Assembly: GCF_058153355.1 (NCBI RefSeq)
Contig: NZ_CM177019.1
Reading direction: 5' to 3' (one strand)
Length of the DNA stretch: 64,000 nt
In this document: positions 36,357 through 62,084 of the stretch, piece after piece
Layout: each line of letters begins with the position of its first letter
Numbering within the stretch: position 1 is the stretch's first letter
Notes under the pieces: model-generated
The model's input: only the letters and a program-made list of their open reading frames with translations
The model's database searches: none
What the model was told of the DNA's origin: nothing
Translations under genes and position numbers: made by a program

Positions 36357-36365
36357 AGTGTTGCC

Positions 36366-36605: not shown

Positions 36606-37001
<396 letters not shown>

Positions 37002-37180
37002 TCAAAATGTGTGATGGAAATCTCATAATTTTGTCACTTTTTGTCAACGAATCTTTTTTGTGAGAAATCGCAGGAAGAGGTGTTTTTTTACTTGAGGAAT
37101 ATCTCAAAGCGAGCCATATTTGATGAGATCGATAGTGACTAAATCGCTTCAGTTTCACAACTAACAGAATAAAAAAACGG

Positions 37181-37193
37181 CAGCTCAAGGCTG
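37181..37193. repeat. target-site duplication of IS4 derivative, left copy (cagctcaaggctg)
   Basis: identical 13-mer at 38003..38015. Confidence 0.7.
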
Positions 37194-38002: not shown

Positions 38003-38015
38003 CAGCTCAAGGCTG
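38003..38015. repeat. target-site duplication of IS4 derivative, right copy (cagctcaaggctg)
   Basis: identical to 37181..37193. Confidence 0.7.
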
Positions 38016-38038
38016 CCGTTTTGTGTTTCAGGTTTCTG

Positions 38039-38776: not shown

Positions 38777-38910
38777 GACGTTTTGACTTTCCTCAAAATG
38801 TAATACGGGAGATTCTCTGTTCCTGCTCCCGGTTAAGACCAGCTACAATAGCACACTATATTAAACGGCAAAGCCGTAAAACCCCAACGATAAACGAAGA
38901 AGCAGTATAT

Positions 38911-39891
38911 ATGGCACAACGAGTACAGCTCACTGCAACGGTGTCCGAAAACCAACTCGGTCAACGCTTAGATCAGGCTTTGGCCGAAATGTTCCCGGAT
39001 TATTCACGTTCGCGAATAAAAGAATGGATCCTCGACCAGCGCGTGCTGGTTAACGGCAAAGTTTGTGATAAGCCGAAAGAAAAAGTATTGGGTGGCGAGC
39101 AGGTGGCCATCAACGCTGAGATTGAAGAAGAAGCGCGTTTTGAACCGCAGGATATCCCGCTGGATATCGTCTATGAAGATGAAGATATCATCGTCATTAA
39201 TAAACCACGCGACCTGGTGGTACATCCTGGCGCGGGTAACCCGGATGGCACGGTACTGAATGCGTTGCTTCATTATTATCCGCCCATTGCCGATGTACCG
39301 CGTGCGGGCATCGTCCATCGTCTGGATAAAGACACCACCGGCCTGATGGTTGTGGCAAAAACCGTTCCGGCTCAGACGCGTTTAGTCGAATCTTTGCAAC
39401 GGCGTGAAATTACTCGTGAGTATGAAGCGGTGGCAATTGGTCATATGACCGCTGGCGGTACAGTAGATGAACCAATCAGCCGCCACCCGACCAAACGTAC
39501 TCACATGGCGGTGCATCCGATGGGTAAACCGGCGGTCACTCACTATCGCATCATGGAACACTTCCGTGTGCACACGCGTCTGCGGTTGCGTCTGGAAACC
39601 GGACGTACGCACCAGATCCGCGTGCATATGGCCCATATCACTCATCCGCTCGTGGGCGATCCGGTTTATGGCGGCCGTCCGCGTCCGCCAAAAGGTGCTT
39701 CGGAAGCGTTTATCTCCACGCTGCGTAAGTTTGACCGCCAGGCGCTTCATGCAACCATGCTGCGTCTTTATCACCCGATCTCCGGCATCGAAATGGAATG
39801 GCATGCGCCTATTCCACAAGATATGGTGGAGCTGATTGAGGTGATGCGCGCCGATTTCGAAGAGCATAAGGATGAAGTGGACTGGTTATGA
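38911..39891 (+). CDS. rluD: 23S rRNA pseudouridine synthase RluD
   Basis: 326-aa ORF; S4 domain plus HRLDKDTTG motif. Confidence 0.92.
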   Translation: MAQRVQLTATVSENQLGQRLDQALAEMFPDYSRSRIKEWILDQRVLVNGKVCDKPKEKVLGGEQVAINAEIEEEARFEPQDIPLDIVYEDEDIIVINKPRDLVVHPGAGNPDGTVLNALLHYYPPIADVPRAGIVHRLDKDTTGLMVVAKTVPAQTRLVESLQRREITREYEAVAIGHMTAGGTVDEPISRHPTKRTHMAVHPMGKPAVTHYRIMEHFRVHTRLRLRLETGRTHQIRVHMAHITHPLVGDPVYGGRPRPPKGASEAFISTLRKFDRQALHATMLRLYHPISGIEMEWHAPIPQDMVELIEVMRADFEEHKDEVDWL

Positions 39892-40619
39892 GTAAGCTGA
39901 TTGTCCCGCAGTGGCCGCTGCCAAAAGGTGTTGCGGCCTGTAGCTCTACCCGTATCGGCGGCGTGAGCTTGCCGCCGTATGACTCGCTCAACCTCGGTGC
40001 CCATTGTGGCGATAACCCGGATCACGTCGAGGAAAATCGTAAGCGACTTTTTGCTGCGGGCAATTTGCCTTCAAAACCGGTCTGGCTTGAGCAGGTACAC
40101 GGCAAAGATGTGCTTAAGCTTACTGGCGAACCTTATGCCTCAAAACGAGCGGATGCCTCTTATAGCAATACGCCCGGCACGGTTTGCGCCGTGATGACGG
40201 CTGACTGCCTCCCTGTGCTGTTTTGCAATCGAGCGGGAACGGAAGTCGCCGCCGCTCATGCTGGCTGGCGTGGACTGTGCGCAGGCGTGCTGGAAGAGAC
40301 GGTTTCCTGTTTTGCTGATAATCCCGAAAACATTCTCGCCTGGTTAGGGCCGGCAATTGGTCCACGCGCGTTTGAAGTGGGAGCGGAGGTTCGCGAGGCG
40401 TTTATGGCAGTAGACGCCAAAGCGAGTGCAGCTTTCATTCAGCATGGAGATAAATATCTGGCGGATATTTATCAGCTTGCCCGGCAGCGTCTGGCGAACG
40501 TTGGTGTTGAGCAAATTTTCGGCGGTGATCGCTGTACATACACAGAAAATGAGACATTCTTCTCTTATCGTCGCGACAAGACCACTGGTCGTATGGCAAG
40601 TTTCATTTGGCTGATATAA
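39888..40619 (+). CDS. yfiH: purine nucleoside phosphorylase / polyphenol oxidase YfiH
   Basis: 243-aa ORF overlapping the rluD stop by 4 bp. Confidence 0.85.
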   Translation: MSKLIVPQWPLPKGVAACSSTRIGGVSLPPYDSLNLGAHCGDNPDHVEENRKRLFAAGNLPSKPVWLEQVHGKDVLKLTGEPYASKRADASYSNTPGTVCAVMTADCLPVLFCNRAGTEVAAAHAGWRGLCAGVLEETVSCFADNPENILAWLGPAIGPRAFEVGAEVREAFMAVDAKASAAFIQHGDKYLADIYQLARQRLANVGVEQIFGGDRCTYTENETFFSYRRDKTTGRMASFIWLI

Positions 40620-40748
40620 CCTAAAGAATCAAGACGATCCGGTACGCGTGATTTTCTTTTCACATTAATCTGGTCAATAACCTTGAATAATTGAGGGATG
40701 ACCTCATTTAATCTCCAGTAGCAACTTTGATCCGTTATGGGAGGAGTT

Positions 40749-43322
40749 ATGCGTCTGGATCGTCTTACTAATAAATTCCAGCTTGCTCTTGCCGATGCCC
40801 AATCACTTGCACTCGGGCACGACAACCAATTCATCGAACCACTTCATTTAATGAGCGCCCTGCTGAATCAGGAAGGGGGTTCGGTTAGTCCTTTATTAAC
40901 ATCCGCCGGCATCAATGCTGGTCAGTTGCGCACAGATATCAATCAGGCATTAAATCGTTTACCGCAGGTTGAAGGCACTGGCGGTGATGTCCAGCCCTCA
41001 CAGGATCTGGTGCGCGTTCTTAATCTTTGCGACAAGCTGGCGCAAAAACGTGGTGATAACTTTATCTCGTCAGAACTGTTCGTTCTGGCGGCACTTGAGT
41101 CTCGCGGCACGCTGGCCGACATCCTGAAAGCAGCAGGGGCGACCACCGCCAACATTACTCAAGCGATTGAACAAATGCGTGGAGGTGAAAGCGTGAACGA
41201 TCAAGGAGCTGAAGACCAACGTCAGGCTTTGAAAAAATACACCATCGACCTCACCGAACGAGCCGAACAAGGCAAACTCGATCCGGTGATTGGCCGTGAT
41301 GAAGAAATTCGCCGTACCATTCAGGTACTGCAACGTCGTACTAAAAATAACCCGGTGCTGATTGGTGAACCAGGCGTTGGTAAAACAGCCATCGTTGAAG
41401 GTCTGGCTCAGCGTATTATCAATGGCGAGGTACCGGAAGGGCTGAAAGGCCGCCGCGTACTGGCGCTGGATATGGGCGCGCTGGTGGCCGGGGCGAAATA
41501 TCGCGGTGAGTTTGAAGAACGTTTAAAAGGCGTGCTTAACGATCTCGCCAAACAGGAAGGCAACGTCATCCTGTTTATCGACGAATTACATACCATGGTC
41601 GGTGCGGGTAAAGCCGATGGCGCAATGGACGCCGGCAACATGCTGAAACCGGCGCTGGCGCGTGGTGAATTGCACTGCGTAGGTGCCACGACACTGGACG
41701 AATATCGCCAGTACATCGAAAAAGATGCTGCGCTGGAACGTCGTTTCCAGAAAGTGTTTGTTGCCGAGCCAACCGTGGAAGACACCATTGCTATTCTGCG
41801 TGGCCTGAAAGAACGTTACGAGCTGCACCACCATGTGCAAATTACTGACCCGGCAATTGTTGCAGCGGCGACGTTGTCTCATCGCTACATTGCGGACCGT
41901 CAGCTGCCGGATAAAGCCATCGACCTGATCGATGAAGCAGCATCCAGCATTCGTATGCAGATTGACTCAAAACCAGAGGAACTCGATCGACTCGATCGTC
42001 GTATCATCCAGCTCAAACTGGAACAACAGGCGTTAATGAAAGAGTCTGATGAAGCCAGTAAAAAACGCCTGGATATGCTTAACGAAGAACTGAGCGACAA
42101 AGAACGTCAGTACTCCGAGTTAGAAGAAGAGTGGAAAGCAGAGAAAGCCTCGCTCTCTGGTACGCAGACCATTAAAGCGGAACTGGAACAGGCGAAAATC
42201 GCTATTGAACAGGCTCGCCGTGTGGGTGACTTGGCGCGGATGTCTGAACTGCAATACGGCAAAATCCCGGAACTGGAAAAGCAACTGGAAGCCGCAACGC
42301 AGCTCGAAGGCAAAACTATGCGTCTGTTGCGTAATAAAGTGACCGACGCCGAAATTGCTGAAGTGCTGGCGCGTTGGACGGGGATTCCGGTTTCTCGCAT
42401 GATGGAAAGCGAGCGCGAAAAACTGCTGCGTATGGAGCAAGAGCTGCACCATCGCGTTATTGGTCAGAACGAAGCGGTTGATGCGGTATCTAACGCTATT
42501 CGTCGTAGCCGTGCGGGGCTTGCTGACCCGAATCGCCCGATTGGTTCATTCCTGTTCCTCGGCCCAACGGGTGTGGGGAAAACTGAGCTTTGTAAGGCGC
42601 TGGCGAACTTTATGTTTGATAGCGACGAGGCGATGGTCCGTATCGATATGTCCGAGTTTATGGAGAAACACTCGGTGTCTCGTCTGGTTGGTGCGCCTCC
42701 GGGATATGTCGGTTATGAAGAAGGTGGCTACCTGACCGAAGCAGTGCGTCGTCGTCCGTATTCCGTCATCCTGCTGGATGAAGTGGAAAAAGCGCATCCG
42801 GATGTCTTCAACATTCTGTTGCAGGTACTGGATGATGGGCGTCTGACTGACGGGCAGGGGAGAACGGTCGACTTCCGTAATACGGTTGTCATTATGACCT
42901 CTAACCTCGGTTCCGATTTGATTCAGGAACGCTTCGGTGAACTGGATTATGCGCACATGAAAGAGCTGGTACTCGGTGTGGTAAGCCATAACTTCCGTCC
43001 GGAATTCATTAACCGTATCGATGAAGTGGTGGTCTTCCATCCGCTGGGTGAACAGCACATTGCGTCGATTGCGCAGATTCAGTTGAAACGTCTGTACAAA
43101 CGTCTGGAAGAACGTGGTTATGAAATCCACATTTCTGACGAGGCGCTGAAACTGCTGAGCGAGAACGGTTACGATCCGGTCTATGGTGCACGTCCTCTGA
43201 AACGTGCTATCCAGCAGCAGATCGAAAACCCGCTGGCACAGCAAATACTGTCTGGTGAATTGGTTCCGGGTAAAGTTATTCGCCTGGAGGTTAATGAAGA
43301 CAGGATTGTCGCCGTCCAGTAA
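40749..43322 (+). CDS. clpB: chaperone disaggregase ClpB
   Basis: 857-aa product from [11 protein letters not shown]...; two AAA+ modules ([16 protein letters not shown]). Confidence 0.93.
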
Positions 43323-43326
43323 TGAT

Positions 43327-43353
43327 AAAACGAGTCCTTCGGGGCTCGTTTTT
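43327..43353 (+). terminator. intrinsic terminator after clpB
   Basis: aaacgagtccttcggggctcgttttt hairpin plus T-run. Confidence 0.5.
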
Positions 43354-43436
43354 GTCTATAAATTAGACGGAAAAGACTATATTCAAGATGTTTTGCCTGA
43401 AAAATGAGCGAACGATAAAGTTTTTATATTTTTCGC

Positions 43437-43464
43437 TTGTCAGGCCGGAATAACTCCCTATAAT
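43437..43464 (+). promoter_or_regulatory. rrn P1 promoter (-35 ttgtca, -10 tataat) with upstream AT-rich UP-like element
   Basis: ttgtca at 43437..43442, tataat at 43459..43464. Confidence 0.6.
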
Positions 43465-43554
43465 GCGCCACCACTGACACGGAACAACGGCAAACACGCC
43501 GCCGGGTCAGCGGGGTTCTCCTGAGAATCTCGACAGAGAAAAGCAAAAAAATGC

Positions 43555-43582
43555 TTGACTCTGTAGCGGGAAAGCGTATTAT
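43555..43582 (+). promoter_or_regulatory. rrn P2 promoter (-35 ttgact, -10 tattat)
   Basis: ttgact at 43555..43560, tattat at 43577..43582. Confidence 0.55.
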
Positions 43583-43620
43583 GCACACCCCGCGCCGCTG
43601 AGAAAAAGCGAAGCGGCACT

Positions 43621-43632
43621 GCTCTTTAACAA
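43621..43632 (+). promoter_or_regulatory. rrn leader boxA antitermination element (gctctttaacaa)
   Basis: exact boxA consensus read directly. Confidence 0.6.
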
Positions 43633-43763
43633 TTTATCAGACAATCTGTGTGGGCACTCGAAGATACGGATTCTTAACGTCGCAAGACGAAAAATGAATA
43701 CCAAGTCTCAAGAGTGAACACGTAATTCATTACGAAGTTTAATTCTTTGAGCATCAAACTTTT

Positions 43764-45305
<1,542 letters not shown>

Positions 45306-45390
45306 CCTTAAAGAACTGTTCTTTGCAGTGCTCACACAGATTGTCTGATAGAAAGTGAAAAGCAAGGCGTCTTGCGAAGCAGACTGATAC

Positions 45391-45466
45391 GTCCCCTTCG
45401 TCTAGAGGCCCAGGACACCGCCCTTTCACGGCGGTAACAGGGGTTCGAATCCCCTAGGGGACGCCA
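45391..45466 (+). tRNA. gltW: tRNA-Glu (spacer tRNA)
   Basis: gtccccttcgtctagaggcccaggacaccgccctttcacggcggtaacaggggttcgaatcccctaggggacgcca; 76 nt. Confidence 0.92.
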
Positions 45467-45660
45467 CTTGCTGGTTTGTGAGTGAAAGTCGCCGACCTTA
45501 ATATCGTTAAAGATGACTTACGAGTCATGTTTAAGATATTTGCTCTTTAAAAATCTGGATCAAGCTGAAAATTGAAACACTGAACAACGAAAGTTGTTCG
45601 TGAGTCTCTCAAATTTTCGCAACACGATGATGAATCGAAAGAAACATCTTCGGGTTGTGA

Positions 45661-48565
<2,905 letters not shown>

Positions 48566-48658
48566 ACAACGCCGAAGGTGTTTTGGCGGATTGAGAGAAG
48601 ATTTTCAGCCTGATACAGATTAAATCAGAACGCAGAAGCGGTCTGATGAAACAGAATT

Positions 48659-48778
48659 TGCCTGGCGGCCTTAGCGCGGTGGTCCCACCTGACCCCATGC
48701 CGAACTCAGAAGTGAAACGCCGTAGCGCCGATGGTAGTGTGGGGTCTCCCCATGCGAGAGTAGGGAACTGCCAGGCAT
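48659..48778 (+). rRNA. rrfG: 5S ribosomal RNA
   Basis: TGCCTGGCGGCCTTAGCGCGGTGGTCCCACCTGACCCCATGCC ... GAACTGCCAGGCAT; 120 nt. Confidence 0.93.
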
Positions 48779-48790
48779 CAAATTAAGCAG

Positions 48791-48817
48791 AAGGCCATCC
48801 GTCAGGATGGCCTTTTT
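48791..48817 (+). terminator. rrn operon intrinsic terminator
   Basis: aaggccatccgtcaggatggccttttt. Confidence 0.65.
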
Positions 48818-48835
48818 GCGCTGGTGCGGAAAAAA

Positions 48836-48875
48836 TGCCGGATGCGACGCTGGCTGCATCTTATCCGTCCTACGC
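48836..48875. repeat. REP-like palindromic element
   Basis: gccggatgcgacgctggctgcatcttatccgtcctac resembles REP consensus. Confidence 0.35.
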
Positions 48876-49102
48876 TCCCACATAAGCCAGATTCAACAGC
48901 GAATACGGCTTCCCCAACTTGCCCACTTCTATACGTCCTCCATACCTGAATTCTATACTGAAGATCCTCAATAACTATTCCCCTGCTAACTAAATTCATG
49001 GTTAAGGTTGCATAATTACATGCAACAAATGTATAACATTTTCTTTGCTAAAAAATAACGATAACCGATAAAGCATCGGATTACGGCAGGAGACATAATG
49101 GC

Positions 49103-50401
49103 ATGGCTGAAAGTACTGTAACGGCAGACAGCAAACTGACAAGTAGTGATACTCGTCGCCGCATTTGGGCAATTGTGGGGGCCTCTTCAGGTAATTTGGT
49201 CGAGTGGTTCGATTTCTATGTCTACTCGTTCTGTTCACTCTACTTCGCCCACATCTTCTTCCCTTCCGGGAACACGACGACTCAACTACTGCAAACAGCA
49301 GGTGTTTTTGCTGCGGGATTTCTGATGCGCCCAATAGGCGGTTGGCTATTTGGCCGCATAGCCGATAAACATGGTCGCAAAAAATCGATGCTATTATCGG
49401 TGTGTATGATGTGTTTCGGCTCACTGGTTATCGCCTGTTTGCCAGGCTACGAAACAATCGGTACCTGGGCTCCGGCATTATTGCTTCTCGCTCGTTTATT
49501 CCAGGGATTATCCGTTGGCGGAGAATATGGCACCAGCGCCACCTATATGAGTGAAGTTGCCGTTGAAGGGCGCAAAGGTTTTTACGCATCATTTCAGTAT
49601 GTGACGTTGATCGGCGGGCAACTGCTAGCTCTACTGGTTGTCGTGGTTTTACAACACACCATGGAAGACGCTGCACTCAGAGAGTGGGGATGGCGTATTC
49701 CTTTCGCGTTAGGAGCTGTGTTAGCTGTTGTGGCGTTGTGGTTACGTCGTCAGTTAGATGAAACTTCACAACAAGAAACACGCGCTTTAAAAGAAGCTGG
49801 ATCTCTAAAAGGATTATGGCGCAATCGCCGTGCATTCATCATGGTTCTCGGTTTTACCGCTGCGGGCTCCCTTTGTTTCTATACCTTCACCACTTATATG
49901 CAGAAGTATCTGGTAAATACTGCGGGAATGCATGCCAACGTGGCGAGTGGCATTATGACTGCCGCATTGTTTGTATTCATGCTTATTCAACCACTTATTG
50001 GCGTGCTGTCGGATAAGATTGGTCGTCGTACCTCAATGTTATGTTTCGGTTCTCTGGCAACCATTTTTACCGTTCCTATTCTCTCAGCATTGCAGAACGT
50101 TTCTTCGCCTTATGCCGCTTTTGGTCTAGTGATGTGCGCCCTGCTGATAGTGAGTTTTTATACTTCAATCAGTGGAATACTGAAGGCTGAAATGTTCCCG
50201 GCCCAGGTTCGCGCATTAGGCGTTGGTCTGTCATATGCGGTCGCCAATGCTATATTTGGTGGTTCGGCGGAGTACGTAGCGTTGTCACTGAAATCAATAG
50301 GAATGGAAACAGCCTTCTTCTGGTATGTGACCTTGATGGCCGTGGTGGCGTTTCTGGTTTCACTAACATTGCACCGTAAAGGAAAAGGGATGCGTCTTTA
50401 G
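49103..50401 (+). CDS. kgtP: alpha-ketoglutarate permease KgtP (MFS)
   Basis: 432-aa [34 protein letters not shown]... Confidence 0.92.
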
Positions 50402-50721
50402 TGATGCGCCAGTTGCCAGACGGTATAGCCAGTAGTTGCACCGGCGACATCCCAGGTAAAATCTTTCCAGCTCCAGCCGCTCCCCTAGGGGCGGCTATCC
50501 CAAAGTTCTTTTGACGCGCCCAGCCCAACAGAGAACATCAGCCCGAAAGTGGCACTGCGATCGCGACTCATCCCCTGATGCTGTGCATATTCATTTCCGG
50601 CGGCGGAAAGCATCGCCGAGGCGATAAAGTGTTGAGCTTTATCCTGCCCGCTCCAGCTATCGTTAGCCATATGGCTGCATCCAGAAAGTAACAATAGCGA
50701 ACAGACAAAAAGAATACGCAA
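50398..50721 (-). pseudogene. yfiM: yfiM lipoprotein gene with an in-frame amber (TAG) codon after codon 78
   Basis: ORF 50485..50721 stops at TAG inside cccctagggg; the same frame continues [28 protein letters not shown] to a stop at 50398..50400. Confidence 0.6.
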
Positions 50722-50765
50722 AACGTGGCCTCCAAAAACAAACCCCGTACAGGACGGGGTTGTGA

Positions 50766-52124
50766 TTACAGGATGCGGCTAATTAATCGGTCGATGCGGA
50801 TACGGCGCAAACGGCGAATGAGTTTACGAACCTTCACCGGATAATCGGCAATACTTTGCAGATCGCGATAGTGCTTAACGATGGTGGTATGCTCGCGGAT
50901 CAGCTCCAGTTCTTTCTCTCGCTGTGGCGCAAGCTCCAGTTGCGGATCGTGAATCAAAATAGCGTTTTCCAGATCCAGACGCCAGGCGCGCGGGTTCAGG
51001 TTATTACCGGTGAGCAACATCCACTTATCATCAACCCACATCCCTTTCAGGTGATAGGTGTTGTCGTCATCTTTCCATAACCGAACCACTAACTGGTCAG
51101 TGTTGACGTAATACTGTAAACGGCTCAGGAAACGACGCAGATTGATCTCATAGAGATAAGGCAATGCGCCAATTATCTTGAAAGGTTCATCTTCCGGAAT
51201 GTAGAAGTCATTCGCGGTTTTATCACCAACAATAATTTCGACCTTTTTCCCTTCGCGCAGCAACTGGATGATATTGCGCACAAGGATTGCTGGCAGGTTG
51301 AAGTATGGCGTACAGATGGTTAGTTTCTGCTCGGCACAAGGCATAAGGTGGAAAATGGTCTTGTTCAACAGACTCGATTTCCCCAGACCTACCAACGGCG
51401 TTACGGAAAGCTGATCGTTGTCAGCATCGCCCTGGAAATGATAAGCGGCATCACGCAGCTCCTGGCGGAACAGACGAATATCGTTCTTGATTTCCGGGCT
51501 TTTTGGCCGATTAACATCATCCAGACGATTAACGCCGCGGCCATTCATAATATTCTGTGTAACCCATTCAAACATAATGTCTGACATCTTACGGTTACGG
51601 ATCAGATGATAACGGTCGTAGCGATATTTATCGTGCTGATGCAGGTAAACATCGTTCAGGCTGGCACCGCTATAAAGTACGCTATCGTCGATGATAAAGC
51701 CTTTAAAGTGCAGAACACCAAGGGCCTCACGGGTATTGATTGGAACGCCATAAACTGGAACATCTACGCCCGGATTTTCCTGTGCCATGCGGCAGTACCA
51801 GTCAGCGTTAGTGTTAGATGCCGCAGCGCCAATGCGTCCACGTTGTGCACGATGCCAGTCGACCAGCACCCGTACATCCAGTTCCGGACGCTGCCGTTTA
51901 GCCTCATACAACGCGTTCAGAATGCCTTTGCCACCGTCATCCTGTTCGAGATACAGGGCGACAATGCAAATGCGCTGCTTCGCGCTGGCTATTTTTTCCA
52001 GCAGCGTCTCCCGGAAGTCGGCGGGAGCGTAAAAGAAATCGACATCATCAACTGATTGAGAAATCTTGGGTAGTTGGGCAAGGTGTTGTTGATGTTTATT
52101 ACGCTTAAATTTTGACAACATCAC
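50766..52124 (-). CDS. pssA: phosphatidylserine synthase PssA
   Basis: 452-aa ORF (M)[16 protein letters not shown]...; two HKD-like regions. Confidence 0.92.
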
Positions 52125-52234
52125 AGTGCATTTCTTCTCTGTTCATTGAAGGGTCCTCTGTGCAATGCAGACGACATAAGCGGGCAATAATAACACCAGT
52201 CCCGATTAAGTGGTCAACATTTCCAGTACCTTAC

Positions 52235-54895
52235 TCATGATTCCTCGCGTTGGGCAAGATTTAGCGTAAGCCCAACGATCCCCTCTTCGAGCTGGATATC
52301 AACGTTAAACCCGAGCTTGCGGGCCAGCGCCACCATGCCACGATTGTTTGGCATCGTAATACCATTCAGACGTTGCAGTCCGTGATCTCGCGTATAGGTA
52401 ATCAACTTTTCCATTAAGCGTCGACCTAAGCCTAACCCTTTGAGATCCGAGCGAACCAGCACGGCAAATTCGGCATCGATGTTATCAGGATCGGAGATCG
52501 CACGCGTGACGCCGAGGATCTCTTCCGTTTGATCAATACGTCGTACCGCTACAAATGCCATTTCCCGATCGTAGTCGATCTGCGTCATGTTGGCTAAATC
52601 TTCATGGGTAAATTCGTTGATCTCGCTAAAGTAGCGGTAATAAAGATCTTCTTTGGTGACTCGCGAAATGAACTGCTGAAGTTGTGGCTCATCTTCTGGC
52701 AAAATCGGGCGGAACAAGCAGCGTTCACCGTTTTTCAATTCTACCCACTCTTCCAGCTGATGTGGATAAGGGCGCACTGCCAGCCGGCTCTCGTTATCGC
52801 CTTCAAACGGCGCGATATCCAGCGTGACATCCAGCGCGGTAAATTCACTGCCAGAAGCCAGCAAAGGATGAATATCCAGACGTTGAATCTCCGGACAATC
52901 GACAATCAAGTTAGAAACCTGCACCAGTAACTGGCTTAATCCCGCCACATCCAGCGGGCGTAGCGCACTACGCGCACGAATCTTTTTACTTTTGATCCCC
53001 TGAATGACCAGATAACGTGCCAGGTTCATGTTCAGCGGCGGTAGTGCGACGACGGCTTGATCTTCAGGACGCCACTCCACACCGCCTTCGCCCAGCATGA
53101 TCAACGGTCCGAAAACCGGATCGTGCTCAACCACTACTCGCAACTCCTGAGCGCCAGCACGGTTAGCCATACTTTGTACCAACAGGCCGTGGATACGCGC
53201 CTGCGGCCAGGCCATTTTTACGCGATCGAAAATAGCATTTGCGGCTTGCTGGACTTCATTGGCTGTACGCAAGTAGAGCATGACGCCCTGAACTTCTGAT
53301 TTATGTGGAATATCCGGCGAGCGTAATTTTAGTGCCACCGGATAACCAATCTGTTCGGCAATATGCACAGCCTCGGTGCTGTCAGTGGCAATCCAGGTGG
53401 GAAGTGTGTTCATGCCGTACGCTTGCAGGATAGGCTGAACTTCATGGGTATCGAGCGAAGTAGCCCCTTCGACAATGGCCTGTTGCAACAGAAGATGCGC
53501 TTCTGCGGTATTAGAGGTCAGATTGCTGGGCAACGCCGGCGTTTCGCGTAGTTGCTTCTGATTACGCCGGTACTCCACCATATGCATAAAAGCGGTGATG
53601 GTTCCTTCCGGGGTGCGGTAGGTCGGCAGCCCGGCTTCGCTGAATAATCGTCGTGCCTCTTGCGAGGAGTGCTCGCCACACCAGTTCGTCAGCAGAGAAA
53701 CATACTTGCTGCGGGGATGATGCTTTACCGCTTCAATTAATGCATGCGCGCTTTCTGTTGCGGGAGCAGCGGCGCTGGGCGAATGAATAACCATCAGCGC
53801 ATCAAAATCCTGACTGTGGAGCAGAATATCCAGCGTTTTAATATAATGCTCGCTGCTGGCGTCATCGCGCAGATCGAGCGGGTTAGAGATTGCTACATGT
53901 TCTGGCAGCGTATCGCGTAGCTTCTGGCAGGTTTCTTCGCTTAGCGTTGCCAGCTTGCCATTGCGTGACCATAAGGCATCCAGCGCCAGCGCGGCAGGCG
54001 CGGCACCGTTGCTGATAATCATCAGCCGATCGCCACGCAGCGGGCGCATATGGCTAAGGGTTTCCACTGCCGAAAACAGTTCGTGGGTATCCTGTACCCG
54101 CAACAAACCGGCGCGCTGAATAGCTGCATCCCAGGCAGGATCCATTCCTGCAGTGGTGTTCAGTAGTCGTTGCGCAGCCGGGCTACGTCCACTTTTAATC
54201 ACCAGAATAGGTTTATTACGTGAGGCGCTACGTGCAGCCGAAACAAAACGTCGCGCATCACTTAATTGTTCGAGGTAGAGCAGGATTGCACTGGTTTTGC
54301 TGTCGCGCGCCAGATAATCGAGCAATTCATCAACGTCGATATCCAGGCTGTCGCCGAGAGCAATAAAGTAGGAAAAGCCCATTTCCCGCTGTTGTGCCCA
54401 GTCGAGGATGGTATTGGAGACGGCGGCAGACTGCGAAATAAACGCCAGTTTGCCGCGTTTAATCGGTACAGGCGAAAAGCTGGCATTCAGGCCTTGCCAG
54501 GGGGCCAGTAATCCCAGACTGTTTGGCCCCAGCAGACGCATGTTATGGCGCAGGGCGCAGGCGCGGAGATCTTCGTGTTGCGATGCCGGGGCGGAAAGAA
54601 TAATGCAGGTTTTACAGCCTTTCTCGCCGAGCTCTTCCAGAAGCGCCAGATTGCGGCTGGCATTGGTACACAGTACAGCAAGGTCGGGTGTAAATGGCAG
54701 ACTGGCGATATCCGGCCAGGCCAACACACCCAACACCGCTTTCCAGGCTGGCGTCACCGGTAACACCGGTCCGTTAAAGCCTCCCGCCAGCAGGTTACGC
54801 ATCATCAGGTAACCAGCGCGATTAGGTTTCATCGATGCGCCAATTACCGCTATTGATTTTGGTCGCAGTAGTGCTTCCAGTCCTCGCTGACTCAT
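52235..54895 (-). CDS. patZ: protein lysine acetyltransferase PatZ (YfiQ/Pka)
   Basis: 886-aa ORF; CoA-ligase-like N-region plus C-terminal GNAT. Confidence 0.92.
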   Translation of the reverse strand: MSQRGLEALLRPKSIAVIGASMKPNRAGYLMMRNLLAGGFNGPVLPVTPAWKAVLGVLAWPDIASLPFTPDLAVLCTNASRNLALLEELGEKGCKTCIILSAPASQHEDLRACALRHNMRLLGPNSLGLLAPWQGLNASFSPVPIKRGKLAFISQSAAVSNTILDWAQQREMGFSYFIALGDSLDIDVDELLDYLARDSKTSAILLYLEQLSDARRFVSAARSASRNKPILVIKSGRSPAAQRLLNTTAGMDPAWDAAIQRAGLLRVQDTHELFSAVETLSHMRPLRGDRLMIISNGAAPAALALDALWSRNGKLATLSEETCQKLRDTLPEHVAISNPLDLRDDASSEHYIKTLDILLHSQDFDALMVIHSPSAAAPATESAHALIEAVKHHPRSKYVSLLTNWCGEHSSQEARRLFSEAGLPTYRTPEGTITAFMHMVEYRRNQKQLRETPALPSNLTSNTAEAHLLLQQAIVEGATSLDTHEVQPILQAYGMNTLPTWIATDSTEAVHIAEQIGYPVALKLRSPDIPHKSEVQGVMLYLRTANEVQQAANAIFDRVKMAWPQARIHGLLVQSMANRAGAQELRVVVEHDPVFGPLIMLGEGGVEWRPEDQAVVALPPLNMNLARYLVIQGIKSKKIRARSALRPLDVAGLSQLLVQVSNLIVDCPEIQRLDIHPLLASGSEFTALDVTLDIAPFEGDNESRLAVRPYPHQLEEWVELKNGERCLFRPILPEDEPQLQQFISRVTKEDLYYRYFSEINEFTHEDLANMTQIDYDREMAFVAVRRIDQTEEILGVTRAISDPDNIDAEFAVLVRSDLKGLGLGRRLMEKLITYTRDHGLQRLNGITMPNNRGMVALARKLGFNVDIQLEEGIVGLTLNLAQREES

Positions 54896-54926
54896 ACCAG
54901 CCTCCCGCAGAAGTGACTGAATGATT

Positions 54927-55625
54927 TTAAATGCTTTCTAACTGTTCTGCTGTGATGCTACCCAGATGTTGCGTTTTTCCTGCCAGATAGCGTGTTTTAA
55001 AGCGAGTGAAATGCTCGCCTAAGCTAGCCGCAGCTCCAGTATCGCCGGCCATATCTAACAGTGCGATGGCTACCTCGGCAGTACAATATTGGCCTTCAGC
55101 CTGGGCTTCACGCAGGCGATAGGCAGAAAGCCGGGAAAGATCGACGGAAATGACGGGAAGATTATCCAGATACGGACTTTTACGAAACATCTTGCGAGCT
55201 TCAGGCCAGGTACCATCGAGCATGATAAATAGCGGAGGCTTACCGGCAGGTGGTGTGAAGATCACTTCCCGTTGCTCATCAGCATACGAGGCGGGAAAGA
55301 CCACCATTGGCTGATAGTCCGGGTTTTGTACCAGATCCAGCAAATCTAGCGAGGGTTCGGTACGCGACCATTGAAACGCAACGGTATCAGGCAAAATATC
55401 AGCAATCAGACGCCCGGTATTACTGGGCTTCATTGGCTCGGTGTCGAACATCAGCAAACAGAAGCGACTTTTTGCTTGTGCTGGGGTAATTGTCGAACAG
55501 AGACATAATTTCTCTGGTAAAAGGCAGCGTTGGCAGCGACGAACGCGATTACCGCGGGCAAGAAAAGGACGTGTTGCGCGCGCAATACGCTCGGCGCGTA
55601 ACTGGAGAACAGCGTTTTCGGTCAT
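54927..55625 (-). CDS. yfiP: tRNA-uridine aminocarboxypropyltransferase (YfiP/TapT, DTW domain)
   Basis: 232-aa ORF with CxxC...C region and DTW motif (MLDGTW). Confidence 0.85.
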   Translation of the reverse strand: MTENAVLQLRAERIARATRPFLARGNRVRRCQRCLLPEKLCLCSTITPAQAKSRFCLLMFDTEPMKPSNTGRLIADILPDTVAFQWSRTEPSLDLLDLVQNPDYQPMVVFPASYADEQREVIFTPPAGKPPLFIMLDGTWPEARKMFRKSPYLDNLPVISVDLSRLSAYRLREAQAEGQYCTAEVAIALLDMAGDTGAAASLGEHFTRFKTRYLAGKTQHLGSITAEQLESI

Positions 55626-55694
55626 AAGAGAGCGTCGAAAAAAACGCCATTGTCGCAGAGGAGAAAACGGGGCACAAGATGCACCCCGACAAGA

Positions 55695-56114
55695 TTAAAG
55701 CGATTCGTTCAGCCAGCTATCGAAAGGTGCTTTTGGTACTGCGCCATTAAGCATGTCGACAACCTGACCGTTTTTGAAAATCATGATTGTCGGAATGCTA
55801 CGAATACCAAAGCGGCTGCTTAATTCACGTTCAGCTTCGGTATTCACTTTCACAAAGCGCACTTTACCGCTACGCTCTTGCGCAACATCTTCAAAAATTG
55901 GTGCGAAATTACGGCAGGGGCCGCACCACGGTGCCCAGAAGTCGATCACCACAGGCAGATCATCTTTCAGCAATTTATCGAGCGTTTCACCGGTCGCATT
56001 AATCACCTCTCCGTCAAACAAGTCGTGACCGCAGCGTCCGCATTTTGCCGCATCTTCGATCCGATCGTCGGGAATGCGATTGATGGCCTGACAATGGGTA
56101 CAAACGGTATTCAT
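55695..56114 (-). CDS. trxC: thioredoxin 2
   Basis: 139-aa ORF; N-terminal zinc-finger cysteines; WCGPC active site. Confidence 0.92.
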
Positions 56115-56320
56115 AACTAACCTCGGGATGAGTAAGGAGACTTATCGGCAACGACGCCGGTATGTTTCTAATATGTTACATATTATCGGGGACATTGTTC
56201 CAGACAACAATCTGTTTTATTCAATAGGTATGATAGTCGCAGGCTTTGGTACGAAATCATGGCGAACCGCGCGCACTTCGGGTAATCTGCGCGCTTCGCG
56301 CAGCGCTGGTGGAGAAAAGC

Positions 56321-57358
56321 ATGAACGATGAGATGAAAGGTAAAAGCGGCAAGGTCAAAGTGATGTATGTCCGCAGTGATGATGATTCTGATAAACGTAC
56401 CCACAACCCGCGTACCGGGAAAGGGGGCGGGCGTCCAGGAAAATCTCGTGCTGACGGTGGCCGTCGCCCCGCCCGCGATGACAAACAAAGTCAGCCCCGT
56501 GACCGCAAGTGGGAAGAGTCTCCGTGGCGCACGGTTTCCCGCGCACCGGGTGATGAGACGCCGGAAAAGGCCGATCACGGTGGCATCAGTGGTAAAAGTT
56601 TTATTGATCCGGAAGTTTTGCGTCGTCAGCGTGCGGAAGAAACCCGCGTCTACGGCGAAAACGCCTGTCAGGCACTGTTCCAGAGCCGCCCCGAAGCGAT
56701 TGTTCGCGCCTGGTTTATTCAGAGCGTAACGCCACGTTTTAAAGAAGCATTGCGCTGGATGGCGGCAAACCGCAAAGCGTATCATGTGGTGGATGAAGCG
56801 GAACTGACCAAAGCGTCAGGCACGGAACATCACGGCGGCGTTTGCTTCCTGATCAAAAAGCGTAACGGTACAACCGTGCAGCAGTGGGTAAGTCAGGCAG
56901 GTGCGCAGGATTGTGTACTGGCACTGGAAAACGAATCTAACCCGCATAACCTGGGCGGCATGATGCGCAGTTGCGCACACTTCGGCGTGAAAGGCGTTGT
57001 GGTGCAGGATGCGGCGTTGCTGGAATCCGGTGCGGCTATCCGTACCGCAGAAGGCGGTGCAGAGCATGTCCAGCCGATTACTGGCGACAACATTGTTAAC
57101 GTGCTGGATGACTTCCGCCAGGCGGGTTACACCGTAGTGACCACCTCCAGCGAGCAGGGTAAACCGCTGTTCAAAACCAGTCTGCCAGAGAAAATGGTGC
57201 TGGTGCTGGGTCAGGAATATGAAGGGTTACCGGATGCCGCACGCGATCCGAACGATTTGCGCGTGAAGATTGACGGAACTGGGAATGTTGCCGGGCTGAA
57301 TATCTCTGTTGCAACCGGCGTTTTGCTTGGCGAATGGTGGCGTCAGAACAAAGCCTGA
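56321..57358 (+). CDS. yfiF: SpoU-family RNA methyltransferase YfiF
   Basis: 345-aa product from [17 protein letters not shown]...; ORF track extends upstream. Confidence 0.85.
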
Positions 57359-57405
57359 TAAATCAGCCGGGTGGCAATTCTGCCATCCGGCGTTTTCCCT
57401 CAAAT

Positions 57406-58095
57406 TTACTCACTCTCTGCCGGTAATACTGGCATCCAGTCAATCGGTTTCTCGCCACGTTGTTCCAGCCACTGATTTGCCAGCACAAAATGATTGCAGC
57501 CAAAGAATCCACGATGTGCAGAAAGCGGCGATGGATGCGGCGCTTTCAGTACGTGATGGCGTTGCTTATCTATAATCGCCCCTTTCTTTTGCGCATGTGA
57601 TCCCCACAACAAAAACACCACGCCTTCGCGGTGCTGGTTAATCAGGCTGATGACTTTGTCGGTGAAGGTCTCCCAACCGAGGCTGGCGTGGGAATGCGCC
57701 TGACCTGCGCGAACCGTCAAGACGGTATTGAGCAGCAAAACGCCCTGACGCGCCCAGCTCTCAAGATAACCATGACCAGGGCGGGTAAAGCCGGGAATGG
57801 TATTTTCCAACTCTTTATACATATTCAGTAATGACGGAGGAATAGCGATTCCGGGACGAACAGAAAATGCCAGACCATGCGCTTGTCCGGGGCCATGATA
57901 GGGGTCCTGACCGAGGATCACGACTTTGACATCGCCCAACTCGGTAAAGCGAAAGGCGTTAAAGACATCTTTTTGTGGTGGATAGATAGTGATGCCGGAC
58001 TGCCGCTCGCTGGCGACGGTTTGAAGGGTATTAAGGAAATAGGGTTGCTGCTTCTCTTCAGCCAGCACGTCATGCCAGGTTAATTCGTTAGCCAT
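57406..58095 (-). CDS. ung: uracil-DNA glycosylase
   Basis: 229-aa ORF; ILGQDPYH motif. Confidence 0.93.
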
Positions 58096-58399
58096 CTCGC
58101 TCTCCTGCGAATCTTCAATCCGCCTAGCTTAACTGCTTCTTTCTACAGAACAAAACCAGGCTCGTTTTTTAGCCAAAAACACGTGAAAAAAAATGTAAAT
58201 TGGTAAAATTTCACACCCGTATAAGTTGATGTAAAACAATAAAATCCATTTGCGACCACACTTGATGCGTGGTTTTTATTGATTTAAATCAAAGAATCAA
58301 GGGTGTTTGAGGAGTATATATACACTCAAGCAACAATGGTTTTACCAATTGGCCGCGACAGGCTAATCAAATCAAATAATTTTGCCGGGGAGGCATCAC

Positions 58400-58783
58400 A
58401 TGATTACAGGTATCCAGATTACTAAAGCTGCTAATGACGATCTGCTGAACTCTTTCTGGCTGCTGGACAGCGAAAAAGGCGAAGCGCGTTGCATCGTTGC
58501 GAAAGCAGGTTTTGCAGAAGACGAAGTGGTTGCAGTAAGCAAACTGGGTGACATTGAATACCGTGAAGTTCCAGTAGAAGTTAAACCAGAAGTTCGCGTT
58601 GAAGGTGGTCAGCACCTGAACGTAAACGTTCTGCGTCGTGAAACTCTGGAAGATGCAGTTAAGCATCCGGAAAAATATCCGCAGCTGACCATCCGTGTAT
58701 CCGGTTATGCAGTTCGCTTTAACTCTCTGACTCCGGAACAGCAGCGCGATGTTATTGCTCGTACCTTTACTGAAAGCCTGTAA
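58400..58783 (+). CDS. grcA: autonomous glycyl radical cofactor GrcA (YfiD)
   Basis: 127-aa product from [16 protein letters not shown]...; RVSGY glycyl-radical motif. Confidence 0.92.
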
Positions 58784-58838
58784 GGTTTAAGTAGCAAGTT
58801 ACTAAGCGGAAGAGGGCGACCTCTTCCGCTTTTTTTCA

Positions 58839-59426
58839 TTAACAGAAAATGCGCACTGCGCAATAGACCAGCAACAACGCCAGCACGATATTTAACTGGC
58901 GACCATACTGGCGAAACAATCGCTGAAACAGATGCCCCGCCAGCGCCCAGCACACATTGCCAAAGGTCCCAATCATTGCCAGCAAAACGCTGACGCCAAT
59001 CACCCAGCTTAACGCCTGCGTTTGTGGCAGGACAAATGTCGACAGTGCTGTAATGCCGTACAAAATAATTTTGACGTTCACAAACTGCAAAGCAAAGCTG
59101 GCCCAGAAGCTGATCGGTTTGGCCTGAAGTCCGTCTTCCTTAGTTGGACTGGTAGCGATTTTCCATGCCAGCCAGACAATATATGCTGCTCCTGCCCAAC
59201 TCAAAAGGTGCACCGCTGCCGGGTCGATAACAGCCAGTGAAAATGAAATTCCTGCACACAGTAACATCACAATCAAAAATCCCAGACTCATCCCTGCCAG
59301 CACGCGGGTACTCCGACGAAATCCATGCGACGTGGCAGAGCTAAGAGCGAGTATATTGTTTGGTCCTGGCGTCAGGGCGGTAATCAGGGTGTAGGTCCAA
59401 AAAGCACTTAAAAGGGTCGGTGTCAC
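58839..59426 (-). CDS. eamB: cysteine/O-acetylserine exporter EamB (YfiK, LysE family)
   Basis: 195-aa hydrophobic ORF. Confidence 0.85.
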   Translation of the reverse strand: MTPTLLSAFWTYTLITALTPGPNNILALSSATSHGFRRSTRVLAGMSLGFLIVMLLCAGISFSLAVIDPAAVHLLSWAGAAYIVWLAWKIATSPTKEDGLQAKPISFWASFALQFVNVKIILYGITALSTFVLPQTQALSWVIGVSVLLAMIGTFGNVCWALAGHLFQRLFRQYGRQLNIVLALLLVYCAVRIFC

Positions 59427-59483
59427 TTGTTATCTCCTCTGTTTTGGTAGACAGTACCCGACACGAAACATTTAAAAAAATGA

Positions 59484-60410
59484 ATGTTTTCACATTCTAA
59501 ATTCGATATTTTCGATAGGTTTGGAGTTATTGATCTGCGCCGTTTTATTACGCTTAAAACCGTGGTGGAAGAGGGTTCCTTTTTGCGAGCTTCGCAAAAA
59601 TTGTGTTGCACACAATCGACGGTGACTTTTCATATTCAACAGCTTGAACAGGAGTTCTCAGTACAATTGTTTGAGAAAATTGGCCGACGGATGTGCCTCA
59701 CTCGCGAAGGCAAAAAGTTGCTGCCGCACATCTATGAACTCACCAGAGTGATGGATACGCTTCGTGAGGCTGCCAAAAAAGAGTCTGATCCGGACGGAGA
59801 ACTGCGCGTTGTTTCAGGCGAAACGCTGCTCTCTTACCGAATGCCGCAGGTGTTGCAGCGTTTTCGGCAACGTGCACCAAAAGTGCGTTTATCACTGCAG
59901 TCGCTGAACTGTTACGTGATCCGTGATGCTCTACTGAATGATGAGGCCGACGTCGGTGTTTTTTATCGCGTAGGAAATGATGATGCTCTGAATCGACGAG
60001 AATTGGGTGAACAATCGCTGGTGCTGGTGGCTTCACCGCAAATTGCAGATGTCGATTTTACCCAGCCGGGAAGACATAACGCCTGTAGTTTTATTATCAA
60101 CGAACCGCAATGTGTCTTCCGGCAGATATTTGAGAGCACGCTGCGCCAGCGGCGGATCACGGTGGAAAATACCATTGAGCTTATAAGTATCGAAAGCATA
60201 AAGCGTTGTGTCGCGGCGAATATCGGAGTTAGCTATCTGCCGCGTTTTGCGGTGGCAAAAGAGTTGGAGTGCGGAGAATTAATCGAATTGCCTTTTGGCG
60301 AACAGTCGCAGACCATTACGGCAATGTGCGCTCACCATGCCGGGAAAGCGGTTAGCCCGGCGATGCACACTTTTATTCAGTGTGTTGAAGAGTGTTTTTT
60401 GCCGGGATAA
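59484..60410 (+). CDS. yfiE: LysR-family transcriptional regulator YfiE; start codon uncertain
   Basis: 308-aa ORF; N-terminal LysR HTH (RRFITLKTVVEEGSFLRASQKL). Confidence 0.75.
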   Translation: MFSHSKFDIFDRFGVIDLRRFITLKTVVEEGSFLRASQKLCCTQSTVTFHIQQLEQEFSVQLFEKIGRRMCLTREGKKLLPHIYELTRVMDTLREAAKKESDPDGELRVVSGETLLSYRMPQVLQRFRQRAPKVRLSLQSLNCYVIRDALLNDEADVGVFYRVGNDDALNRRELGEQSLVLVASPQIADVDFTQPGRHNACSFIINEPQCVFRQIFESTLRQRRITVENTIELISIESIKRCVAANIGVSYLPRFAVAKELECGELIELPFGEQSQTITAMCAHHAGKAVSPAMHTFIQCVEECFLPG

Positions 60411-60416
60411 AAATAA

Positions 60417-60615
60417 TGCCGGGCTTAAACCCGGCACCCAACTTGTCGACGAAGTGCGTTTTGTTCATGCCGGATGCGGCGTGAACGCCTTATCCGGCCT
60501 ACAAGATCGTGCAAATTCAATATATTGCATGAGCCATGTAGGCCTGATAAGCGTAGCGCATCAGGCAGTTTTGCGTTTGCCAGCACTTTTAATTCCGGGC
60601 TTAAACCCGGAATTA
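60417..60615. repeat. REP/BIME cluster between convergent yfiE and srmB
   Basis: gccggatgcggcgtgaacgccttatccggcctac and inverted partner gtaggcctgataagcgtagcgcatcaggc, flanked by gccgggcttaaacccggc hairpins. Confidence 0.5.
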
Positions 60616-60618
60616 AGA

Positions 60619-61953
60619 TCACTCTTCTGTCGTTTGCGGTGGCACGCCCGTTCCGCTTGGTTTACGGCGCTTACCAATATTTTTGGTATCGCGATGGCGT
60701 TTTTTCACCCGTGGCTTCTCTTTCTCTTTAGCCTTTTTCTTCTCGGCGCGTTTTGCCAGTACTTTCTTCGATGGCTTGCCGGTCTGCTTCTCACTTGGCG
60801 CACGCGTTTTCGGGCGTAACTCATCAATTACGCGAGCTTTAATTGGCTCTTCAATATAACGGCCTACTTTGCCCAGCAGCAGATGGTCATGAGCTTCAAC
60901 CAGTGAAATCGCGGTTCCCTTACGACCAGCGCGAGCAGTACGTCCGATACGGTGTAAATAAGTATCGCCACTGCGTGGCATATCGAAGTTAAAGACATGG
61001 CTGACATCCGGAATGTCGATACCGCGCGCGGCAACATCGGTGGCAACCAGTACGTTAACGCGACCTTCGGTCAGACGCTTGATCGCTTCGTTACGCTTGC
61101 CTTGTACCATCTCACCTTCGAGATAGCAGTTGTTGATGCCCGCTTCGCGCAGCCAGTTTGCCAGTTCATGCACACGCTCACGCTTACGCACAAATACAAT
61201 TGAGCGGGTCGCTTCCGGTTGTTTTAACAGATGCACCAGTAATGCGGTTTTATGCTCAAGATCATCAGCACGGTAATACCACTGATGAATCTTTTTGCGC
61301 TCACGGGTGGATGGATTCGCAGAAACTTCCACCGGATCTTCAAGCAGACGCTCGGCAAAATCCTGAATGGCATCGCCTTCAAGCGTTGCCGAGAAGAGCA
61401 GGGTCTGTTTACGCCAGCGCGTTTCGCCTGCAATATGTTCGATATCCTGAGCAAAACCCATATCCAGCATACGGTCTGCTTCGTCGAGGATCAGCGTTTC
61501 AACCGCGCGGCAATCGAAGTTCTCTTCTTTTATGTATTGCAGCAGACGTCCGGTCGTGGCAACCACGATATCCTGGTTTTCGCTGAATACTTCCGCGTGG
61601 TTCATATAGGCTACGCCGCCGGTGATGGTGGCGATATCCAGATGCGTATGTTTCGCCAGTTCGCGGGCATGATCGGCCACCTGCATCGCCAGTTCGCGAG
61701 TCGGGGTGAGGATCAAAATACGCGGCGGACCGGATTTCTTACGGGGGAAATCGAGCAGGTGCTGCAACGCTGGCAGCAGATACGCCGCCGTTTTACCGGT
61801 GCCTGTCGGCGCAGAACCGAGTACATCACGGCCATCGAGCGCAGGCGGAATGGCGGCAGCCTGAATGGCGGTCGGGCGAGTGAAACCTTTATCCTGGAGG
61901 GCTTCCAGCAGGCTTTCGTCGAGTTCAAGTTCGGAAAAAGTCGTTACAGTCAT
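60619..61953 (-). CDS. srmB: DEAD-box RNA helicase SrmB
   Basis: 444-aa ORF; [14 protein letters not shown] (LILDEADRM), SAT motifs. Confidence 0.93.
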
Positions 61954-62084
61954 GTTCTACCTCTGTGTGGGGCGCTGATTATAGACGTTACGGCTGCAAT
62001 CTTCATCTGTTTGTATGGATATCGCTTCTCGGGTATTGTTCTCACCCGGTGCTATCGCCGTTTTTCCTGCAAGGTTTTATTTTC

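Follow-up and report, generated by a model that had tools for sequence, protein, structure and literature searches.

A premature amber codon in yfiM, private to one rare lineage of Escherichia coli

The reading frame of yfiM, a small envelope gene of E. coli, carries an in-frame amber codon in the DNA considered here, and this codon raises a simple question. Has the gene been lost, is its stop codon bypassed, or has an intact gene been misread? The window, by which we mean the whole stretch of DNA that was analyzed, is 64,000 nt long and comes from contig NZ_CM177019.1 of NCBI RefSeq assembly GCF_058153355.1. All three possibilities had been offered in the original prediction, which also drew attention to a palindrome surrounding the stop codon. 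The features needed to follow the argument are given below by their positions in the window.

50398..50721, minus strand: yfiM frame (107 codons and a stop codon) with an interruption at codon 79 (ORF reading; TTG start and length as in K-12 b2586)
50721..50719, minus strand: yfiM start codon, TTG
50400..50398, minus strand: natural stop codon of yfiM, TAA
50485..50487, minus strand: premature amber codon TAG, Glu79 to stop (alignments with relatives)
50485..50721, minus strand: open remainder of yfiM, 78 aa ending in DSRP (mechanical ORF list)
50401..50484, minus strand: untranslated yfiM codons 80-107 (28 codons), which encode the helix of residues 85-105, Lipocone H4
50729..50733, minus strand: yfiM ribosome-binding site GGAGG, 7 nt 5' of the TTG (direct reading; identical in all aligned relatives)
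50741..50761, minus strand: putative terminator-like hairpin with a T-run in the gap between pssA and yfiM (consensus match only)
49103..50401, plus strand: kgtP, an intact convergent neighbor whose stop codon TAG is at 50399..50401
50766..52121, minus strand: pssA, intact, upstream of yfiM and part of trxC-tapT-patZ-pssA-yfiM

Direct reading bears out what had been predicted about the frame itself. The TAG at 50485..50487 lies in frame, and the 28 sense codons that follow it stay open up to the natural TAA. This TAA does overlap the stop codon of kgtP, and the two genes share 4 bases just as they do in K-12, where yfiM occupies 2724128..2724451 and kgtP occupies 2724448..2725746. It had also been stated correctly that K-12 YfiM is a protein of 107 aa with a sense codon at this place. 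Codon 79 of K-12 yfiM is GAA (Glu), and when the two genes are aligned the reference reads through this position rather than ending there. None of the 28 codons past the TAG is an in-frame ATG, GTG or TTG at which translation could restart, and thus the C-terminal fragment cannot be made. A scan for promoters and terminators returned nothing beyond the hairpin located 3' of pssA, and an Rfam scan of 48500..52500 returned rRNA only.

Alignment places the changed base at position 50487, where it reads as C>A on the plus strand and as G>T on the coding strand. Codon 79 is GAG in the six closest alleles, which are those of EC42405, 2020CK-00188, NMBU-W13E19, 042, and the draft genomes L006 and L007, and TAG is one base away from every comparator that has GAG at this codon. 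Because all close alleles carry GAG, the change is a single G>T transversion. The gene is otherwise identical to the intact allele of draft genome L007, and a 107-aa version of the protein that has Glu79 and is exact at all other positions is present in five E. coli contigs. The 28 codons downstream from the TAG likewise match the intact alleles with no further change, which indicates that the lesion is young. The window itself is not a K-12 derivative, given that its genes are 92-100% identical to those of K-12. Its best match among complete E. coli genomes is 98.4% over 24 kb.

Carriers of the TAG allele were located indirectly, by means of the exact PatZ and TapT proteins of the window and of a 61-aa gene call that begins at the internal Met18. 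In assembly GCA_043012465.1, contig DAXYJU010000039.1 (43.9 kb) carries the TAG and is 100% identical to positions 48792..64000 of the window (15.2 kb). The rRNA operon marks the end of this contig, which is typical of short-read assemblies, and the NCBI record of the assembly lists no yfiM product. Since the window spans the rRNA operon, it must derive from a different and more contiguous assembly than GCA_043012465.1. In the Logan assembly of run SRR8656992, a 9.9-kb contig also carries the TAG and is 100% identical to positions 48767..58696; here the gene caller reports a 61-aa protein that extends from Met18 to the same DSRP end. The contig recurs in three samples, and these samples and assemblies may represent independent isolates or one isolate that was sequenced repeatedly. 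A literature search on the run and assembly accessions gave no match. Three further accessions (EGO8353117, EGO8353118, and EGO8353121) point to one more assembly of this lineage, which was submitted directly. Nine other contigs with the 61-aa product were considered as carriers and rejected: their sequences, at 96-97.5% identity, come from other lineages and stop at CCCC, CCCCG or CCCCGA because the contig runs out there.

The allele is rare. A 61-base query centered on the TAG had no exact match in any of the 669 complete E. coli genomes with this allele type, and the best match in each of the 669 contained exactly one mismatch. Among 4,773 complete genomes with the K-12-type allele, which is the majority type, none had the equivalent change, which would produce TAA. 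No entry in a collection of 15 billion proteins equals the exact 78-aa product, and an exact 30-mer containing the TAG was found in neither the GTDB representative genomes nor the JGI metagenome contigs, although these last two empty scans only show that the allele is rare. The exact TapT protein of the window occurs in only two to three contigs, from which it follows that the carrier lineage is rare as well. The TAG allele is therefore private to one rare E. coli lineage.

What would the product of this allele lack? The protein is about 107 aa long in almost all homologs across the Enterobacteriaceae. When Glu79 is restored, the protein encoded in the window scores 193.3 bits against NCBIfam NF008028 ("YfiM family lipoprotein"; cut-off 117) and 40.3 bits against Pfam DUF2279 (cut-off 28.6). 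The truncated protein falls to 20.0 bits against DUF2279, which is under the cut-off, and still passes NF008028 with 135.7 bits, a match that covers profile positions 1-78 of 106. Among 20 genera, residue 79 is variable (E/A/G/K/S/N), and the stretch that follows it, residues 80-103, is nearly invariant. Within this stretch, G80, G82, W83-S-W-K-D87, W90-D91, A93-G-A95, G98, and W102-Q103 are the same in all 20 genera. A broader set of 64 homologs with identities down to 28% has seven invariant positions (D27, K28, K71, D75, D87, G94, and G98) and six that are nearly so (W23, H31, G68, E72, S84, and W90). Three of the former (D87, G94, and G98) and two of the latter (S84 and W90) lie beyond the stop codon.

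An AlphaFold model calculated from the homolog alignment (mean pLDDT 93.4) places helices at residues 2-12, 26-48, 53-75, and 85-105, the first of which corresponds to the signal peptide and lipobox. A fold search of the PDB with this model returned nothing below E = 1. The 78-aa remainder retains the signal peptide, the lipobox LSGC, and the helices of residues 26-48 and 53-75. In contrast, the helix of residues 85-105, which is the most conserved helix of YfiM, is removed whole. YfiM has been described as a minimal four-helix Lipocone domain whose predicted reaction is the exchange of lipid head-groups, and the Lipocone pocket is lined by residues to which H2 contributes a His, H3 a Glu, and H4 both an Asp and a capping Gly (Burroughs, Nicastro & Aravind 2025; 10.1101/2025.01.14.632903). 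With H4 absent, this pocket should be abolished. Both the conservation pattern and the structural model thus lead us to expect that YfiM needs the missing segment in order to function and loses its function along with it. Because the fragment retains H31, K71, E72, and D75, sequence alone leaves room for some residual or altered activity.

These observations are best accommodated by a young nonsense mutation, confined to a single lineage, that changed codon 79 from GAG to TAG and left YfiM nonfunctional, and we hold this account to be very probably correct. The pseudogene option of the original prediction is thereby supported, in that a single G>T separates the window from comparators that all encode Glu at this position and the most conserved helix is forfeited. 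One G>T transversion in one rare E. coli lineage would have converted the Glu codon to a stop, and translation would then end after DSRP to yield a 78-residue precursor that keeps the lipoprotein signal peptide and, of the three helices of the mature protein, only the first two. Such a protein presumably could not form the cone and would be nonfunctional, judging from a pocket that draws on helices 2, 3, and 4. Moreover, the Arg-Pro that immediately precedes the stop codon would probably cause poor termination, SsrA tagging, and degradation, so that the fragment, besides being incomplete, is likely to be present in small amounts. A passage of PMC7246954 that cites Hayes et al. 2002 and Pierson et al. 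2016 links a C-terminal proline to poor release and SsrA tagging. For an Arg-Pro-stop ending in the library of PMC7246954, expression was only slightly lower (normalized ratio 0.86).

The mutation leaves the other operon genes, and kgtP on the opposite strand, untouched. The genes trxC, tapT, patZ, pssA, and yfiM lie on the minus strand at 56114..50398, and all are intact except yfiM; a neighborhood of five genes encoding thioredoxin, DTW, PatZ, PssA, and YfiM has been described previously (10.1101/2025.01.14.632903). The final 84 nt of the yfiM transcript, which extend into the 3' end of kgtP, lose their translation. Since the yfiM-kgtP pair is among the listed convergent transcriptional overlaps (PMC12288877), kgtP could conceivably be affected to a small extent. 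In K-12, the Keio strain that lacks yfiM is viable, and lambda forms consistently small plaques on it (PMC2900299). The loss of yfiM would thus be tolerated because the gene is dispensable under laboratory conditions. A second private and potentially damaging change is located 9 kb away, where the start codon of yfiE has changed from ATG to ATT. Two copies of IS4 are also present in the window.

The palindrome noted around the TAG requires separate treatment. Two further features are relevant.

50482..50491: perfect 10-bp palindrome CCCCTAGGGG, which holds the new CCTAGG; ancestral sequence CCCCGAGGGG
50475..50496, minus strand: GC-rich inverted repeat of 9 pairs and one bulge, with a 3-base loop that is codon 79; present in both the ancestral and the mutant sequence

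The palindrome is indeed present around the stop codon, but it is no pre-existing signal. The ancestor reads CCCCGAGGGG at this site, and the perfect palindrome is a by-product of the mutation, a side effect, as we would see it, of where the base change happened to fall. When all single substitutions in the ancestral gene were enumerated, 20 of 954 would make a perfect palindrome of at least 10 bp; of the 38 that give a nonsense codon, 2 would do so. The creation of a palindrome by a nonsense change is therefore mildly unusual, and it was noticed after the fact. The predicted DNA fold of the coding strand has an energy of -9.3 kcal/mol for the ancestral and mutant versions alike, and that of the other strand has values of -9.2 and -9.5 kcal/mol for the two versions (z about -2 to -2.7). 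Hairpin energy is essentially unchanged because the mutated base resides in the loop. The tetranucleotide CTAG is strongly depleted in the window, with 37 occurrences observed versus about 249 expected from base composition. The only other copy of CCCCTAGGGG in the window is at position 45451 and lies within the tRNA-Glu gene gltW.

Several routes to the new sequence were considered and set aside. Gene conversion from gltW was rejected as coincidence, given that the sequence shared by the two sites is only about 11 bases long. A Dcm/Vsr origin of the CTAGG was also discarded, because it would call for CCAGG in the ancestor and for a C>T change, where CCGAGG and a G>T are seen. A mutator background of the mutY/mutM type, with its excess of G:C>T:A changes, does not agree with the 35 singleton substitutions specific to the window that were counted across 11.6 kb, only 4 of which are G:C>T:A and 26 of which are transitions.

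Two rival accounts would deny that the gene has been lost at all. If the true codon were GAG, the T could have been miscalled, for example through an oxidative G>T artifact or a systematic error at a GC-rich inverted repeat. G>T is the classic oxidation artifact of sequencing libraries, and codon 79 does sit in a GC-rich hairpin. Moreover, contig ends from other lineages are 2-3.5 times as frequent at this codon (within 0-2 bases) as at two control codons. This ratio rests on 53 index blocks ending at codon 79, compared with control look-ups of products that end four codons earlier (27 blocks) and seven codons later (15 blocks). We read the excess as modest and not as a hotspot, and some of it comes from contigs that read CCCCGA and therefore represent breaks at a common GAG/GAA polymorphism. 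Against a miscall stand the short-read assembly GCA_043012465.1 and the Logan assembly of SRR8656992, which were each built separately from the window and carry the same TAG in sequence that matches it at 100%. In addition, all 42 complete K-12 orthologs in the window, from yfiC to smpB, are gap-free, and the only internal stop is that of yfiM; the other 41 of 41 contain neither a stop nor an indel. With the TAG in two other read-derived assemblies and 41 clean orthologs, this option is effectively refuted, and we regard a base-call error as very unlikely. Alternatively, the stop codon might be real and bypassed, with a natural amber-suppressor tRNA or a high rate of UAG read-through providing useful full-length YfiM. 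The protein would in that case be made at a low and possibly condition-dependent level, through a suppressor tRNA or slow release at Arg-Pro-UAG, with a tolerated residue inserted at position 79. Within its conserved stretch residue 79 alone varies, and because it differs across genera nearly any inserted amino acid should be tolerated. The 28 downstream codons are open and unaltered, and slow release of a peptide with a C-terminal proline would favor competing read-through. However, an intact downstream frame is equally expected of a very recent mutation. The tRNA and tmRNA genes of the window comprise only a normal tRNA-Glu(UUC) and the tmRNA gene, with no suppressor among them; the classical suppressor loci glnV, tyrT, serU, and leuX lie outside the window. 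A strong suppressor would also be costly, as kgtP, 84 nt away, stops at TAG itself, as do many genes. The stop is conserved in no relative and hence is not a programmed recoding site, and the conservation of the codons downstream from this lineage-specific stop simply reflects the ancestral gene. Nothing observed points to amber suppression in this strain, which is unlikely, and there is very little probability that read-through, by either route, supplies a functional protein.

Two other proposals accept the stop codon and concern why or how it arose. A shorter or dead YfiM might benefit the lineage, for instance through altered envelope lipid head-groups or reduced susceptibility to phage. 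The small lambda plaques on the K-12 yfiM knockout (PMC2900299) would be consistent with such a benefit, as would the occurrence of the allele in several assemblies or samples. Adaptive losses usually show repeated, independent hits, whereas this allele is found in one rare lineage with no recurrence, and drift in a clone that passed through a bottleneck would explain the private yfiE change and the two IS4 copies no less well. Selection for the truncation is accordingly given only a slim chance of being correct. The remaining proposal bears on the origin of the mutation and not on its effect: a template switch during replication could have turned CCCC-GA-GGGG into CCCC-TA-GGGG. The G>T is among only two substitutions able to perfect this 10-bp palindrome, just 2 of 38 nonsense changes yield a palindrome of at least 10 bp, and the site is flanked by a 9-bp stem. 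Furthermore, quasi-palindromes are documented hotspots for template switching in E. coli, where they mutate toward greater complementarity (PMC7202029). The site resembles the quasi-palindrome hotspots studied there in E. coli thyA and in lacZ reporters in that an imperfect repeat was, formally, made more perfect. Those hotspots, in contrast, correct mismatches in the arms of longer repeats and recur often, whereas the yfiM change affects a base of the loop or center, leaves stem stability the same, and shows no recurrence. The mutated base lies at the exact center of the palindrome, and all predicted hairpins leave it unpaired in their 3-base loop; an intramolecular fold-back is therefore unable to template it. 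The bulged A in the stem was left uncorrected. Recurrence was 0 in about 5,440 genomes on either allele background, and the G>T change at codon 79, which is also absent from the GTDB representatives and JGI metagenomes, does not behave as a hotspot. A coincidence with a chance of about 2-5% that was recognized post hoc is weak evidence in return. A templated origin would be possible by an inter-strand switch only; we do not favor it and judge it to be improbable.

The preferred reading, that of a young and lineage-private nonsense mutation, places the locus in familiar company. Like other nonsense pseudogenes that are private to lineages of E. coli and Shigella, which the NCBI pipeline labels as pseudogenes with an internal stop, it has a stop codon created by a single base in a syntenic, dispensable gene whose orthologs are full-length. 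It differs from ordinary examples in no substantive way, and the sole oddity is that the mutation added a 10-bp palindrome and the depleted CTAG. Laboratory K-12 strains carry amber alleles, such as rpoS(Am), beside supE or supF suppressors. The yfiM allele shares with these an in-frame chromosomal TAG and an open downstream frame, but its carrier is not derived from K-12. With regard to the protein, the version with Glu79 restored is a typical member of the YfiM-1/DUF2279 branch of the Lipocone superfamily, with a lipobox, a size of about 107 aa, a signal helix followed by three more helices, a His/Glu/Asp pattern formed by H31, E72, and D87 or D91, and the same gene neighborhood. The form that is actually encoded lacks helix 4 and scores under the Pfam cut-off, and the function of the family as a whole is a predicted one. 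A small, dispensable envelope gene has thus recently become an ordinary nonsense pseudogene in this one lineage.

The significance of this allele beyond annotation is little. In annotation, yfiM of this lineage should be entered as a pseudogene with an internal stop, not as a protein of 78 aa or 61 aa and not as a gene that has been silently repaired. Nor should assembly polishing remove the TAG, because read-derived assemblies support it. A strain with the allele would be a natural yfiM null and could serve as a ready comparison in studies of envelope lipids, given that YfiM is a predicted Lipocone enzyme encoded in the pssA neighborhood, although this is a matter of convenience rather than of discovery. 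The TAG allele is also a convenient clonal marker for the rare lineage, and it adds a CCTAGG site (AvrII/BlnI).

The tetranucleotide CTAG is strongly depleted across the whole window, with 37 copies observed compared to approximately 249 expected from base composition. Because the core-genome copies cluster within the rRNA operon and within the ssrA island, the CTAG newly arisen in yfiM is one of few located inside a core protein-coding gene. The same mutation yields a CCTAGG site; there are just three such sites in the 64 kb. Outside yfiM, the palindrome CCCCTAGGGG has a single further occurrence in the 64 kb, which lies within a tRNA gene:

45391..45466, gltW, tRNA-Glu
45451..45460, CCCCTAGGGG in gltW, T-arm/acceptor region

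Identity between the gltW copy and the yfiM site extends for only about 11 bases, and for this reason we judge from the sequences that their common palindrome is coincidental.

Codon 78/79 of yfiM is also a place where some public contigs end. Contigs L014-L022, which come from other E. coli lineages and encode a 61-aa yfiM product cut off at this codon, have ends corresponding to window 50486..50488. More broadly, public short contigs stop 0-2 bases from codon 78/79 in a 2-3.5x excess over two control codons (53 index blocks, compared to 27 and 15 at the controls). It is possible that this excess is caused by a GAG/GAA polymorphism or by a GC-rich inverted repeat.

A deep allele dimorphism distinguishes window 48800..64000 from 17000..48800. 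Among complete genomes, 4,770 match the yfiM segment at 90-95% identity, compared with only 651 at 95-99%. Across the genes yfiM to nadB, identity to the K-12 counterparts is 92-97%, whereas many genes to the left of this stretch reach 97-100%. This pattern of identities suggests that an old recombinant segment is present.

Altered start codons were encountered at two genes near yfiM:

59529..59531, + strand, start codon of yfiE, ATT in the window
48870..48932, - strand, yfiS, a small gene (20 codons in K-12) with first codon ATA in the window and ATG in K-12

The yfiE gene codes for a LysR-type regulator, and its initiation codon is ATG in K-12 and in L006 and L007, two E. coli comparators with the intact yfiM allele. 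The change is a G>T substitution 9 kb away from the yfiM amber codon. A 61-mer at the yfiE start had no exact match among 4,197 complete genomes, the best carrying one mismatch. The ATT codon is a second private change near yfiM, and it potentially lowers expression.

Two IS4-family insertions also distinguish the window from K-12:

18859..20205, + strand, intact transposase gene between yfjF and bamE
37139..37918, - strand, second, internally deleted copy between raiA and bamD

The intact gene codes for 448 aa with Nterm_IS4 and DDE_Tnp_1 domains, and is inserted at a spacer that measures ~60 bp in K-12. The second copy is 99% identical to it across the first 179 residues and then skips to approximately residue 293, and its presence makes the raiA-bamD interval ~820 bp longer than in K-12.

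An integrase-bounded island with defence genes lies at the ssrA site, beside the tmRNA gene:

1..16800, island
3190..4068, WYL regulator
4167..5105, dynamin-like GTPase
7095..7628, PD-Lambda-4 B protein, beside A, covering profile positions 1-176 of 303 only
7674..11525, PD-Lambda-4 A protein, full-length (1283 aa, 2500 bits)
12239..14922, helicase and DUF2290 pair
15373..16614, integrase
16819..17181, ssrA, tmRNA gene
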